A DNA stretch of 64,000 nt, from NCBI GenBank assembly GCA_964016885.1, contig OZ024761.1, positions 22,816,001 through 22,880,000 of the forward strand, written 5' to 3'. This document shows positions 1 through 64,000 of the stretch, in pieces (the stretch's first letter is position 1; the number at the start of each line of letters is the position of its first letter). The notes beneath the pieces are model-generated. The model was given only the letters and a program-made list of their open reading frames with translations. It was not told the origin of the DNA and did no database searches. The translations under genes and the position numbers were made by a program. The DNA is from Eledone cirrhosa (Eukaryota).

Positions 1-250
1 ACTGTTTGGTTGGTTTTCGCTTCTGTATCTTTTATATCAGTTAATTTATTCGGTCCTCAATGTTTACCATTGACTGACCAACGGTTAGACTATATATATG
101 TGTTTATATCTATATTATATCTGTATTTTTGACCGTTGGTCAGTCAATGGTCAACATTGAGGACCGAATAAATTAACTGTTATGAAAGATACAGAAGCGA
201 AAACCAACCAAACAGTGAGTGTGTCTGTTATTAATAAAAATCTTCCCAGC
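1..250. mobile_element. Palindromic PLE pLTR fragment related to the 3' end of the 16500-20511 element
   Basis: Bases 1-85 are the reverse complement of about 131-216. The sequence matches 16563-16660 (actgtttggttggttttcgcttct...cggtcctcaatgtt). Confidence 0.75.
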
Positions 251-442
251 GAAGTTAACAAAGAACTTAGTAGTTCTACCAACTCGTAATATGATAATAT
301 AAAATTAAATTAAATTATTTAGAACTACAAGTGAAGTCATTCTTTTTCCTTTTTTCAATTATATATATATATATATATATATATATATATATATATATAT
401 ATATATATATATATATATATATATATATGTATATATATACTT

Positions 443-810
443 CGTTTTTGAATTTGTTTTGCAAGATTTTTTATCTGAAAACGTGTTGAAACAGATATTG
501 TTATACCTTGGGAGGGTCATGCTGCCAATAAAAACACACGCACCTGTTAGTTTTCATTCAATTTATTATAAATTTCTGGTTGTTTGGTTGGTTCAATAAC
601 TGGATAGTTGTTTATATATTGTCAAAGCGCTTTCGTCACACATTCTGTGACCTCCTCAGTGAACAAGGTTTTTATTTTTTGTGTCTCTCCTTGAAAAAAC
701 AAGTAGGTGTAGGACATAACAAAGGAGAGATACAAAAAATAAAAACCTAATCACCGAGGAGGTCACAGAAGGTGTGACGAAAGAGCTTTGACAATATATA
801 AACAACGACT
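443..810. mobile_element. PLE pLTR family B in inverted (fold-back) arrangement with two HHR motifs
   Basis: HHR 622-662(-): tca-CTGAGGA-ggtcaca..tgtgac-GAAA-gcgc-TT-tga. Inverted copy 751-791(+) has CCGAGGA. Same family at 25064-25277, 27005-27264, 35092-35400 and 60620-60800. Confidence 0.8.
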
Positions 811-945
811 CTTTTCCTATTACCCACTCTAGTACCCTAAGTATCGAGTACTCTAGTGTGTTATGGTCCACCTGGTTCCTTACCACAACTCCTTCGTTAT
901 ATGTGATGTGTGTATGTGTGAGTGTATATATATATATATATATAC

Positions 946-1317
946 AGAATCACTCAGATGGTGGATGGGTGCTACACAAGAATGCTGAGGATGGCTCTGA
1001 ACATTAATCAGTATACACTGAGGATGAAGAACTCAGAGCTGTACGGGAGCCTCCCAAAAGTCAGCACAAAAGTGACACAGAGGAGACTGAGGTTGGCTGG
1101 ACATGCTCACCGACATCCAGAGTTGACATTGCACTCAGTGCTCCTGTGGGAGCCCCTACATGGACACACTGGAAGAGGAAGACCAAGGTTAACGTATGTT
1201 GATGCCCTAAGGACAGACACTGGTCTGTTGGAGACGCAGGACATGGCAGCGATAATGAGGGACAGAGACCGCTGGAGAGAACTCGTCCATGGATCTCGGG
1301 AATTTTACCCGCCTTAG
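946..1317 (+). mobile_element. 3' fragment of RTE/RTE-X LINE ORF2
   Basis: DGCYTRMLRMALNI...RRLRLAGH..RH......LLWEP.HG...RGRPRLTYVD.L..DTGL...M.DRD.WR, a typical RTE-clade C-terminus. Near-identical copies at 32140 and 49229. Confidence 0.85.
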
Positions 1318-3436
1318 ATATATATATATATACAGGAAAAGTAAATAACAAGGAGTCCAGTTACGACAGGTGTTAGGTATTAGGTTGACGTTTGAGAGTG
1401 GGGCGTGACACACACACACACACACACACACACACACACACACACACACACACACACACACACACACACACACACACACACACACACACACACACACACA
1501 CACACACACACATAACGAAGGAACTGTGGTAAGGAGCCAGATGGGCCATAACGCAACAGAGTACTCAATACTTAGGGTAGTAGAGTGGGTAATAGGAAAA
1601 AAGTCCAGAAACAGTCCAGAAATAGCCGTTGAAACGGCTTGAGCTCTGCCGTCGGGGTCAAACATTTTCCTACACATACACACACACACACACACATATA
1701 TATATATATATAAATATATATATATAAATATATATATATATACACACACACACATATATATATACATATATATATACATATATATATAAATATATATATA
1801 TACACACACAAACATATATATATATACACACACACATATATATATACACACACACACACATATATATATACATATATATATACATATATATATATATATA
1901 CATATATATACACACATATATATATATATATATATATATATACATATATATATATATATATATGTATATATAACACTCACACGAGTGTGTAGATTCAGTC
2001 ATAAACAAGCTGTGTTGACAGATTTAGATGTATATAAAAACAAATAATAATTTTTAACTTAATTGTATATATATATTTATATACATATCAAAACAGGGAT
2101 GTCGGGTCGTAATATACGTACAATATATAGACACACACACACAGACACAGACACACACACACACACATACACACACACACAGACACACATACACACACAC
2201 ACACAGACACAGACACAGACACACACACACAGACACACATACACACACACACACACACACACACACAGACACAGACACACACACACACACACACACACAC
2301 ACACACACACACACACACACACAGACACACACAGACACACATACACACACACACACACAGACACAGACACAGACACACACAGACACACACACAGACACAC
2401 ACACAGACACACACACAGACACAGACACACAGACACACATACACACACACACACACACACACACACAGACAGACACACACACACACACACACACACACAC
2501 ACACACACACACACACACACACACATATGCCCCGTTAACTATTTTCTGTAGTAAAAGAAATCCCGCGAAAGTTGTCCAACTTACTTTACAGTCGTACTGA
2601 AATAAGTTTGTTTTATAAACAAAAAATATGTACTATTATACCTAAATTGCTGCTCCCTGGTCTGTTGGTGGTGGTGGTGGTGGTGGTGGTGGTGGTGGTG
2701 TTAGAGTCCCATCTCTATGTCTAGCAGACATAGTGCTATTCCGATGTCTGTGCTGTGTTCAGCTGTTCCGCTCCGTATCACTGCTGTTGTTGGTGTGTGT
2801 GTCAGTGTGTGTGTGTGTAAGTGAGAGAGGGTGTGTGTGTGTGTGTGTGTGTCAGTGAGAGTGTGTGTGTGTGTCAGAGAGAGAGAGAGTGTGTGTGTGT
2901 GTGTGTCAGTGAGAGAGGGTGTGTGTGTGTGTCAGTGAGAATGTGTGTGTGTGACAGTGAGAGAGGGTATGTGTGTGTCAGTGAGAGTGTGTGTGTGTGT
3001 GTGTCATTGAGAGAGAGAGAGAGTGTCAGTGAAAGAGAGAGAGAGAGTGTCAGTGAAAGAGAGAGAGAGAGAGTGTGTCGGTGAAAGAGAGAGAGAGTGT
3101 GTATGTGTTAGTGAGTGAGAGATAGTGTGTGTGAGTGTATGTGTGTCAGTGAGAGAGAGGCTGTGTGTGTGTGTGTGTGTGTGTGTGTGTGTGTGTCAGT
3201 GAGAGAGAGGCTGTGTGTGTGTGTGTGTGTGTCAGTGAGAGAGAGGCTGTGTGTGTGTGTGTGTGTGTGTGTGTGTGTGTCAGTGAGAGAGAGGCTGTGT
3301 GTGTGTGTGTGTGTGTGTGTGTGTGTCAGTGAGAGAGAGGCTGTGTGTGTGTGTGAAATCTTGCCACCAGTCTGTTGGAATGTTAATCCGTAAGACATAA
3401 CAGAGTGTATGTGTTTATATATATATAATATATATA

Positions 3437-3514
3437 TAGGATGTCCGCGAAAATGTATACACACTTCAACAGCATTCTAATAAAAGTGTGTATACATTTT
3501 TTCGGGACATCCTG
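3437..3514. mobile_element. Tiny Tc1/mariner-type MITE (about 80 bp)
   Basis: aggatgtcc.cgaaaatgtatacacactt ... aagtgtgtatacattttttcgggacatcctg, with TA flanks. Confidence 0.6.
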
Positions 3515-3564
3515 TACACACACACCCCACACACACACACACACACACACACACACACACACAC

Positions 3565-3736
3565 GAACTGTTTTATTCAGGAAAAATTATCAGGAAGCTC
3601 AGGGCTTCCTGATGATTTCTCCTGAATGGAACAGTTCTAGACCTGTAGAAGCTTTTCTATATTAAATATATATACTCTGCTATGTCGTGAGTACCTTACT
3701 TACTGTGGTTACCTCCGATTGAACCCGGGATAAACA
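3565..3736 (+). mobile_element. HHR-bearing PLE-derived module (family D) with 5' fold-back
   Basis: HHR 3604-3652: gcttc-CTGATGA-t-ttc-tcct-gaa-t-GGAAC-ag..ct-GTA-gaagc (GAAA mutated to GGAA). Inverted copy 3565-3598. Siblings at 39341-39508 and 47100-47186. Confidence 0.75.
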
Positions 3737-62244: not shown

Positions 62245-62455
62245 CATCATCATCATCATCATCATCATCATTTTACGTCCGCTTTTCCCTGCTAGCAAGG
62301 GTGGGATGGGTCCTATTCAGCACAGCATCTCTCCACTTGTCACGGTCCTTTGTCATCTCTTCGGTGAGCTTCAGCGATCTGAGGTCTTCTCTCACCACCT
62401 CTGCCCATGTTTTTCGTGGTCTTCCTCTACTGCGTCTTCCTTCTACTGGCATTTA
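62245..62455 (-). mobile_element. RTE LINE 3' end with (ATG)n tail
   Basis: Minus strand PVEGRRSRGRPRKTWAEVVREDLRSL...DKWR, then (GAT)n. Confidence 0.75.
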
Positions 62456-62716
62456 AAATGCTAAAAACTGTGAGGCACGAATGTGGCTCTTTAAACTAGC
62501 CAAAGACTTGCACCCTCTGGCACATACATGGCAACTGTAGGCTCTTCTGGGACTTTTCATTGCTTTGTTCTGTCTGTGGTGTGTCAGCACCATAGGAGGA
62601 CCTTCGCTGCCTGGAAATACAACAGCAATGCTTTTCCCCACATCCTTTTTTACTTTCTCGTATGCGATTCCAGATGCTTCAATAGCATATATATATATAT
62701 ATATATATATATATAT

Positions 62717-62922
62717 ATAACGAAGGAAATGTGGCAAGGAACCAGGTGGACCATAACGCACCAAAGTACTCAATACTTAGGGTAGTAGAGTGGGTAATAG
62801 GAACGAGTAGGACTCCGACGGCTGAGCTCAAACCGTTTCGACGGTTAATTCTGGACTAAATGTAGTCCAGAATTAGCCGTCGAAACGGCTTGAGCTCAGC
62901 CGTCGGGGTCCTACTCGTTCCT
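62717..62922. mobile_element. Family A module: tail plus fold-back around a long hairpin, containing the 3' half of an HHR
   Basis: GAAAC-ggct-tgagctc-agcc-GTC-ggggtcc. Palindrome about 62799-62922 centred on ctggact-aaatgt-agtccag. Confidence 0.7.
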
Positions 62923-63012
62923 ATATATATATATATATATATATATATATATATATACGTGGAGAAGTATATAAAGGAGAACAAACCGTTAAAACATGTT
63001 TATTTAAAAACA

Positions 63013-63052
63013 GCACCTACGTACGTTTCGTCCGAAAGGGCTTCTCAAGGGC
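63013..63052 (-). ncRNA. Hammerhead-like motif with U3-A8 core
   Basis: cc-TTGAGAA-gccc-tttc-ggac-GAAAC-gtac-GTA-gg. Confidence 0.6.
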
Positions 63053-63500
63053 ATAAAAAACTAAGGAGTGTTCCTTACGTGACCCAGAAGGGGTTTTAAA
63101 GATAAGTTCACATCACAGTTCATTCTTCGTCACATATATATATATATATATATATATATATATAGAGTACCGATTGTGTTGTTATTTCTGTTACCTTTTA
63201 CATATATATACACATATATATATATAACAAAGAAAGTGTCGTAAAGAACCAGGTGGGCCATAACGCATCAGAGTACTCAATACTTAGGGTAGTAGAGTGG
63301 TTAATAGGAAAAGAGTCAGATGGGGTCCTGATTATTTTCATATATATATATATATATATATATATATATATATATATATATATATGCAGAGGTTATATTT
63401 AATTTTTTGGGATTCAACAAGCTTAAAAATCGAGGAAGCTCCACCCGTTAAGGTTGTCTCTTTTCCGGGTACGTCAATATATATTTATAAAACAAATCTG

Positions 63501-63566
63501 TATTTTATCTGATGAAAGCGCACCATAATTTGCCTTGGTTGCCCTTGAAATATGTATAATAAAATA
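63501..63566 (+). ncRNA. Family E hammerhead, canonical core
   Basis: tattttat-CTGATGA-aag...ctt-GAAAT-atgt-ATA-ataaaata; 8-bp stem I. Confidence 0.8.
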
Positions 63567-64000
63567 AATATGGTTTTATAAATATAGTTTCCCATTTATT
63601 AATATATTGTATATATATATATATATATATATATATTGTGGTATATATATATATATATATATATATTGTGTATATATATATATATATATATATATATATA
63701 TATATATATAATATATATATATTATGAGTTACAAAAAGAGAGAGAGAAAGTGTGTGAGTGAGAGGTGGTGAGAGTTGTTTTTACCATTGTGATCTACTAA
63801 TAGCTGATAGAGAGAGAGAGAGAGGGAGGTAGTGTGAGTTACTTAACCATTGTGCTACTAATAGCTGAGAGAGAGGGAGAGGGAGAGAGAGTGATAGAGA
63901 GGGGGAGAGAGAGAGGGAGGTAATGTGAGTTACTTAACCATTGTTCTACTAATAGCTGAGAGAGAGAGTGATAGATAGATAGATAGAGAGAGAGAGAGAG

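Follow-up and report, generated by a model that had tools for sequence, protein, structure and literature searches.

Type I hammerhead ribozymes at the 3' ends of Penelope-like elements and in retrozyme-like units of Eledone cirrhosa

A 64,000-nt stretch of the Eledone cirrhosa genome (GenBank assembly GCA_964016885.1, contig OZ024761.1, positions 22,816,001 to 22,880,000 of the forward strand; hereafter the window) contains 35 hammerhead ribozyme (HHR) sites, and these motifs are almost certainly type I HHRs at the 3' ends of Penelope-like elements (PLEs). It is likely that the sites as a whole represent 3' ends of PLEs and PLE derivatives inserted into (TA)n, with inverted copies formed by twin priming on one RNA. 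With slightly less than even confidence, we further propose that the insertions record the PLE mechanism in vivo, i.e., a dimeric enzyme priming on both strands of (TA)n at two internal starts of one circular or multimeric RNA and invariably giving a short plus a tailed end, that retrozymes are mobilised by PLEs, and that this is the densest animal HHR population among those we found reported, produced by an ongoing burst of Hydra- and Neptune-type elements. An earlier note made from the letters of the window alone had described about 34 motifs of about a dozen Penelope-linked families. Its counts were close to ours (35 sites, 13-14 families by homology grouping), but instead of the single system that it assumed, 5'-truncated ends of at least two PLE clades together with retrozyme-like units were found.

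Hammerhead motifs in the window and in the genome

The inventory is based on homology to HHRs from all sampled loci. Out of 38 rows, 24114 (a palindromic self-match) as well as 28367 and 43600 (duplicates) were removed. Among the remaining 35 sites, 30 are full-length, 16 of them with a perfect core, and five are partial (3593, 4514, 28433, 39376, and 47159). Three full-length sites carry a U3-A8 covariant core, and the other non-perfect sites are mutated or partial. Nine site pairs represent both arms of one inverted insertion, which reduces the inventory to approximately 26 insertion events. An HHR-type motif was present at all 20 positions named in the earlier note, and 16 of these combine a perfect CUGANGA/GAAA/NUH core with stems I and II; the other four are 754 and 4807 (both U4C), 3609 (A13G), and 12997 (U3-A8 covariant). 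The canonical form assigned to all motifs thus holds for the majority of the named sites, but for only 16 of the 35 in total.

Both an unclosed loop III and one additional nucleotide ahead of stem II are permitted by the descriptor; a descriptor demanding a closed loop III and lacking the extra nucleotide misses most sites. In non-repeat sequence, the 16 perfect cores compare with a mean of 0.15 and a maximum of one in 60 dinucleotide shuffles, in line with the excess over shuffled sequence that the motifs were expected to display. A stricter descriptor detected nine cores in the window versus 0.01 in 100 shuffles and none in the reversed window. Rfam hammerhead models gave no match in the window at the gathering score, and ranked by E-value the best 150 of 560 rows held microsatellite-driven matches alone. 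This shows the limits of the models for minimal variants and not the lack of an HHR fold, and it bears out the expectation that standard annotation would miss these elements. Roughly one intact HHR per 10-12 kb is invisible to Rfam, and annotation may place short PLE ends among repeats of unknown type.

A genome sample of 133 10-kb stretches chosen at round coordinates, including two within 150 kb of the window, contained 134 HHR cores compared to four in shuffles, with 19 of the cores stemming from one tandem array. Weighted for large and small chromosomes, extrapolation to the 3.0-Gb assembly gives an estimated 260,000-290,000 intact cores. Core density amounts to 250 per Mb in the window versus 87-101 in the sample, i.e., it is 2.5-3 times higher, and simple-repeat masking covers 32% of the window versus 9-15% of the sample. 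The window is not special in this respect, since HHRs occur genome-wide at about one per 10-12 kb. Patterns of five families matched the genome exactly at 47,312 positions (G 11,588; C 6,012; J 22,909; I 603; a variant of F 6,200), and reversed controls gave none.

Conservation of the catalytic core extends over 29 sequence clusters. Families A and B differ by compensatory pair changes in stem II and the subfamilies of C by such changes in stem I, and in both alignments, which contain few independent changes, the covariation score lies above that of 500 out of 500 shuffles. Family E occurs with C3-G8 as well as with U3-A8 cores and family L with U3-A8, a covariant described in Schistosoma PLEs (PMC4209133; this and most other sources are cited for their accessible parts). 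C4 was found in all four copies of family D seen; in a viroid, U4C has been noted as a natural variant that is viable although weak (PMC3088659). Stem I of family A and stem II of family I comprise only 2 bp. With its 4-pair stem III, the family C HHR could fold as a monomer. At every site the folding energy of the homodimer is below that of two monomers, as it would be for any hairpin. HHR cleavage as a dimer has reportedly been described by Lunse and colleagues in 2017. Because the members of each pair in the window occupy opposite strands, no intramolecular dimer can arise within a single transcript.

Carrier elements and non-coding units

Seven families (A, B, C, F, G, H, and I; 22 out of 35 sites) form the ends of PLEs encoding a reverse transcriptase (RT) and a GIY-YIG endonuclease (EN), so that the proposed tie between type I HHRs and PLEs is shown for 7 of 14 families. 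Two of them are of the Neptune/Nematis type (A and B) and five of the Hydra type (C, F, G, H, and I). The HHR follows the stop codon of the open reading frame (ORF) and, in tandem units, precedes the next ORF start. A pseudo long terminal repeat (pLTR) resulting from tandem units, an inverted 5'-truncated copy, and an optional tail, as expected of PLEs, were all observed, and most copies are 5'-truncated.

The window harbours a near-full-length, very young copy of family A (16497-20504, minus strand) with a short-type 3' end in (TA)n. This copy matches the units of a tandem array (unit length 4117 bp) at 99.8% identity over 4008-4014 nt and lacks the first 47 of 1210 codons. In the tandem unit the 1210-aa ORF starts approximately 195 nt past the predicted cleavage site. 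The encoded protein consists of an RT, a CX4CxxC linker, plus a GIY-YIG domain at the C terminus, with CCHH. Its RT domain remained below the cut-off (RVT_1, E 1.8e-4), its atlas look-alikes are RT/GIY-YIG (scores 0.96-0.98), and Pfam missed the full family A frame as well as the frames of families G and F. The best named relative is an Octopus vulgaris protein (68% identity; next match 47%). For the last 150 residues, all 150 genome matches scored, which were the best candidates only, are 100% identical. The HHR (16717-16750, minus strand; perfect core, 2-bp stem I, 6-bp stem II) is situated 259 nt past the ORF, within the range of 259-293 nt observed in 30 out of 30 loci. In case of family B, which is about 70% alike to family A in DNA, the HHR at 35340 follows a GIY-YIG frame (PF01541 above cut-off) by 208 nt, and both ORF links proposed for the window are thereby confirmed. 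A and B carry the Neptune/Nematis marks, a CX2-5CxxC linker and CCHH in the C-terminal EN; the assignment is based on these motifs and covers Neptune and Nematis jointly. With a C-terminal EN and HHRs present, the PLEs of the window do not fit the Naiad/Chlamys clades, which are marked by an N-terminal GIY-YIG and the lack of a canonical HHR. A and B resemble known Neptune/Nematis PLEs in the HHR within the pLTR and in tandem and inverted insertions in (TA)n, whereas family A is distinguished by its extreme youth and an Asn-rich insert before the RT.

With about 160 residues, this insert separates the RT from the N-terminal part of the protein (window 19419-19780). A low-complexity N/S/G stretch lies ahead of the corresponding region of the O. 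vulgaris relative P0001, and in rotifer Penelope, Asn-rich inserts have been described at other positions. About 370 nt separate the 5' end of the window copy and a stretch of 200 N (20877-21076). Of the words making up the family A end (window 16500-17400), fractions of 0.47-0.78 are contained in runs from three organisms with different codes; close relatives, mislabels, or recent transfer are candidate explanations. No RNA run was listed as a carrier of family A, which has no bearing on its expression. One insertion (G000:C1:307330001-307350000; L031 and L032) contains five family A HHRs, two on the minus and three on the plus strand, which flank one junction; its units have intact 1217-codon open frames and differ by at most single-A indels over the 950 nt compared.

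ORFs of families C (L259 and L231), F (L072 and L042), G (L258; 775-aa frame), and H (L124 and L196, 98% alike) encode a CxCX5C linker, CxxC, CxH, and a C-terminal EN without CCHH. DKT was read in families G and H. Family I, with an ORF upstream in L272, L266, and L273, was assigned to the Hydra group by tblastn similarity only. Each of these at least five Hydra-type families occurs in thousands of copies or several hundred. For the Hydra clade an RWK motif and a length “generally” under 3 kb were given along with its other marks (Craig et al. 2021, PMC8557442). The frames found here have RWI or RWR rather than RWK, and units are longer than usual, with 3940 bp in family G and a 3' untranslated region (UTR) of about 2 kb in family H. 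The latter separates ORF and HHR, contains short Cys-containing open frames (L194-L196, L119, L131, and L132), and is possibly captured sequence. Family H as a short non-coding unit was ruled out once its ORF was found. The 3' UTR of family G includes a 111-bp tandem repeat of variable number (L258:1347-1919).

The non-coding units of family J measure 421-500 bp and those of family E 318 bp; both families have a type I HHR, and folding z-scores range from -3.9 to -5.8. Family J forms tandem arrays with a period of about 420-500 bp, e.g., 19 HHRs at a spacing of about 468 bp in L108 and four in L070; family E copies extend slightly beyond one unit or are partial tandems. In the L108 array (458-9027) neighbouring units differ by zero to two events, and in L070 unit variants alternate, resembling a repeated dimer. 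A second retrozyme family with a 467-bp unit, a folding z-score of -9.9, and a layout like that of J (L071:5268-6069, L060, and L107) is absent from the window. Unit size, type I HHR, and, in case of J, arrays are shared with non-LTR retrozymes (PMC7229834); different from the published ones, family J exhibits PLE-type head-to-head arms, the pairing of end types described below, and (TA)n. For families D, K, L, M, and the F-related family (10 out of 35 sites), no ORF link was found.

Insertion ends and the origin of inverted insertions

Each coding family has two fixed 3' ends, termed short and tailed, which are 54-94 nt apart. By a loose test (three repeats), 277 out of 300 typed 3' ends adjoin a dinucleotide run, in good agreement with the (TA)n targeting put forward earlier. 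The associated claim of (TA)n islands holds as a modest excess only, since 24 out of 35 HHR sites lie within 150 nt of (TA)5 compared to 48% of positions picked at random in non-repeat sequence. The seven coding families provided 100 head-to-head pairs, of which 81 combine a short with a tailed end, three are short+short, one is tail+tail, and 15 are untyped. Thus 81 out of 85 typed pairs are short+tail, compared to about half under free choice. Family J pairs are short+tail in 8 out of 8 cases and those of its sister family in 2 out of 2 (10 out of 10 for retrozymes); ends of family J were typed by motif, since internal simple repeats defeat typing by BLAST, and 149 rows were dropped.

Arms of family A within one insertion show no difference over approximately 970 nt in 9 out of 9 comparisons (seven insertions), whereas arms of different loci are identical in only 2 out of 342; 27 of 30 loci were usable. 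Unequal 5' ends of the two arms, with offsets above 15 nt and reaching about 1.9 kb, characterise 43 out of 78 junctions. In 17 out of 47 typed pairs it is the tailed arm that is shorter, and in three of these it is reduced to the tail. In position-chosen DNA, only 3 out of 107 5' ends are located within 5 nt of the cleavage site (0.44 per 100 nt versus 0.56 further 3'), and a pile-up of 5' ends at this site was accordingly not supported. In contrast, 38 out of 107 lie inside the HHR or at its 5' edge, 21 of these in family C. In this mapping arms below 30 nt are uncounted, short C arms near the site are invisible, and some F ends may represent alignment breaks.

The pairing of end types, identical arms, unequal junctions, and the scarcity of 5' ends at the cleavage site favour twin priming and retrozymes mobilised by PLEs, and we consider a twin-priming origin of the inverted insertions moderately probable. 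A PLE RT-endonuclease, predicted to be a dimer, would nick both strands of a TA run and prime two cDNAs, one per internal start site, so that the short and tailed ends would correspond to these sites. One uncleaved or re-ligated RNA, or two RNAs of one source locus, would serve as template; both cDNAs would terminate independently and subsequently be joined via microhomology. Retrozymes would be mobilised by the same machinery. With less weight, the HHR may cut multimeric transcripts into unit RNAs which can be circularised, and this would explain arrays longer than one unit; cleavage to unit or circular RNA is a published proposal. In vitro, a purified Poseidon PLE protein, which is predicted to be a dimer, nicks and extends both strands with two internal starts bounding the tail, and HHR cleavage is dispensable for it (PMC11167929).

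Several observations weigh against this explanation. Four typed pairs violate the rule and, in addition to the 15 untyped pairs, both family E pairs are untyped. The comparison of arms is confined to family A matches selected for 100% protein identity, and alike arms could also result from gene conversion or from polishing of the assembly. Single-A indels distinguish two of the five units of one family A array. No sequence similarity of J or E to the seven coding families was found; the view of retrozymes as PLE derivatives has been argued from co-occurrence and pLTR phylogeny (PMC7229834; bioRxiv 10.64898/2026.07.22.740005). Regarding the HHR fold, the double-change pair counts do not exceed shuffles (225 and 446 of 500), and the covariation rests on two or three subfamilies with few independent events. 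Finally, 35 out of 78 junctions are symmetric within 15 nt, as predicted by fold-back self-priming. In this alternative, which we regard as improbable, the inverted copy arises when one cDNA (or an antisense template) folds back on a palindrome and primes itself, one end then being shortened to the short site by the endonuclease. Identical arms would be expected, junction hot spots are indeed located on short palindromes (near -124 in family G and near -44 in family C), and the route was proposed for rotifer Penelope (PMC3846280). However, the tailed arms reaching less far upstream than the short arms (17 out of 47), or consisting of the tail only, indicate that copying of a single cDNA is insufficient without a second priming or a template switch. 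Both twin priming and fold-back may act.

A role of the HHR other than cleavage, i.e., a fold kept for protein binding or RT pausing, or as a passenger, with arrays derived from long multimeric transcripts instead of circles, appears possible but rather unlikely. It would agree with the few 5' ends at the cleavage site (3/107) against 38/107 inside or at the 5' edge of the HHR, the 2-bp stems of families A and I, C4 in all family D copies seen, the normal insertion of HHR mutants in vitro (PMC11167929), and the success of Naiads without canonical HHRs (PMC8557442). On the other hand, a PLE HHR cleaves with the help of protein (PMC11167929), and the core kept in 29 sequence clusters, including the U3-A8 swap, is hard to explain without catalysis. 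The motif is short, the descriptor relaxed, and about four of the 134 sampled cores are expected by chance. Yet chance matches in AT-rich, palindrome-rich repeat DNA are a practically negligible explanation, considering 16 cores versus 0.15 in shuffles, the fixed position after homologous ORFs, and 603 to 22,909 exact matches per family pattern with none in reversed controls.

The route of tandem and inverted PLE insertion, the HHR's function, and the enzyme which moves retrozymes are questions that published papers call open. In a genome where near-identical copies number in the thousands and intact tandem units and several independent families occur, they can be tested directly; family A supplies an intact 1210-aa enzyme together with a natural template, and a sharp prediction follows from the end rule.

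Relation to known systems and distribution in the window

The kind of element is known; new are the scale, the Hydra expansion, and the end rule with its extension to retrozymes. HHRs in PLE pLTRs with many families per genome were described by Cervera and de la Pena (2014, PMC4209133), and the present sites share with these minimal metazoan HHRs the extra nucleotide before stem II, the palindromic loop III, the U3-A8 covariant, and opposite-strand pairs 100-700 bp apart. Counts of about 2,000-9,000 per genome were given there versus the estimated 260,000-290,000 in this study, although descriptors differ and the comparison is not like for like. Elsewhere, by differing methods, more than 6,000 HHRs were reported for a coral, about 5,000 for a mussel, up to 120,000 for the axolotl, about 9,000 for Xenopus, and 235 Rfam matches for the giant squid. 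PLE tails often occur at one end only, with a (TA)n bias (PMC8557442). Hydra-1_Obim of Octopus bimaculoides corresponds to our Hydra-type families in the C-terminal GIY-YIG without CCHH, DKT, CxCX5C, CxxC, and CxH, as well as in the HHR near the 3' end and (TA)n targets (PMC8557442 and its supplement). In its accessible part, the same source lists one octopus family and describes the additions as a “small number”, compared to at least five families with many copies here.

The closest counterpart for the ends is Poseidon PAc of Anolis (Frangieh et al. 2024, PMC11167929), with two internal starts bounding the tail, extension of both strands, an AT-rich target, and no reads ending at the HHR site. 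It belongs to another clade, its tails comprise 30-40 nt versus 54-94 nt here, and the accessible part of the article contains no count of end types in inverted pairs. The accessible text of the retrozyme preprint (bioRxiv 10.64898/2026.07.22.740005) has no passage on a tail, and the main text of a 2026 O. vulgaris repeat paper none on ribozymes. Literature searches, mostly outside subscription papers and bioRxiv supplements, found no such census of octopus hammerheads and no counted end rule for twin or both-strand priming in PLEs. The earlier note suggested that density and family diversity may be undescribed for this genome; the kind of element is already in print, including the Octopus bimaculoides element.

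Of the solo and inverted copies in the window, the majority probably lack activity. Window 1-235, together with the end of L035, represents a diverged family A-like inverted insertion whose forward arm starts about 2-3 nt past the cleavage-site position, one of few such cases. Family B is represented by the insertion at 35096-36278 (minus strand; GIY-YIG fragment, tailed 3' end, core 35340-35308) with an inverted arm at 35960-36278, an inverted pair at 607-806 (cores 659, minus, perfect, and 754, plus, U4C), copies at 27003-27236 (minus, core 27181) and 40874-40949 (plus, decayed, core 40893), and an HHR-less inverted pair truncated 3' of the HHR (25067-25278, tailed + short arm).

All three family C (Hydra-type) copies are inverted pairs, situated at 47098-47189 (core 47151, minus, perfect, and partial 47159, plus), 3562-3733 (3609, plus, A13G, and partial 3593, minus), and 39338-39503 (39385, minus, G12C, and partial 39376, plus). 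The other Hydra-type families comprise F at 24048-24159 (plus, core 24075) and as an inverted insertion with tailed and short arm at 63379-63617 (core 63509, plus); G as a tailed + short inverted pair at 58265-58698 (cores 58453, minus, and 58593, plus) and as minus-strand copies at 50056-50233 (core 50164, A14G) and 60293-60518 (core 60474); and the short + tailed inverted pairs of H at 25999-26532 (cores 26092, minus, and 26345, plus) and I at 44677-44881 (cores 44744, minus, and 44756, plus).

Regarding the non-coding units, the 421-bp unit of family J occurs with direct terminal redundancy at 50473-51075 (plus, core 50825; the 3' limit is approximate) and the 318-bp unit of family E with terminal redundancy at 9098-9472 (plus, core 9303, C3-G8) and as a copy at 12826-13155 (minus, core 12997, U3-A8 covariant). 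The families lacking an ORF link are the F-related one at 38890-39070 (minus, core 38971, A13G); D with an inverted insertion at 4437-4884 (core 4807, plus, U4C, and partial 4514, minus) and a copy at 8706-8850 (minus, core 8778, U4C, mutated cleavage triplet); K with a minimal HHR at 59819-59900 (plus, core 59832, U4C) and a copy at 5148-5271 (minus, core 5258, G8A); L with a U3-A8 core in an inverted pair at 28322-28449 (28349, minus, and partial 28433, plus) and a copy at 43552-43603 (minus, core 43582, U3-A8); and M with a decayed HHR-homologous copy at 63010-63060 (minus, core position 63048).

CTGANGA sites at 985, 1018, 9598, 12666, 18736, 23393, 23990, 27523, 29703, 33521, 37118, 41555, 48833, and 53351, as well as the related copies at 32601, 32634, 49528, and 49561, failed the descriptor and are not regarded as HHRs. 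Regions 950-1323, 32145-32660, and 49224-49595 are copies of a 3' end resembling long interspersed nuclear elements, with an 81-bp tandem repeat at 32290-32529, and none of their CTGAGGA sites is an HHR. A short, abundant element that frequently occurs as inverted pairs in (TA)n contains no core that passes the descriptor and may represent another non-autonomous PLE-type unit (807-895, 1517-1659, 6052-6179, 9503-9644, 13166-13342, 16374-16431, 22274-22411, 44392-44551, 45315-45451, 62725-62917, and 63230-63319). A fragment of a hAT dimerisation domain, under the Pfam cut-off, is located at 11204-11560 (minus strand).

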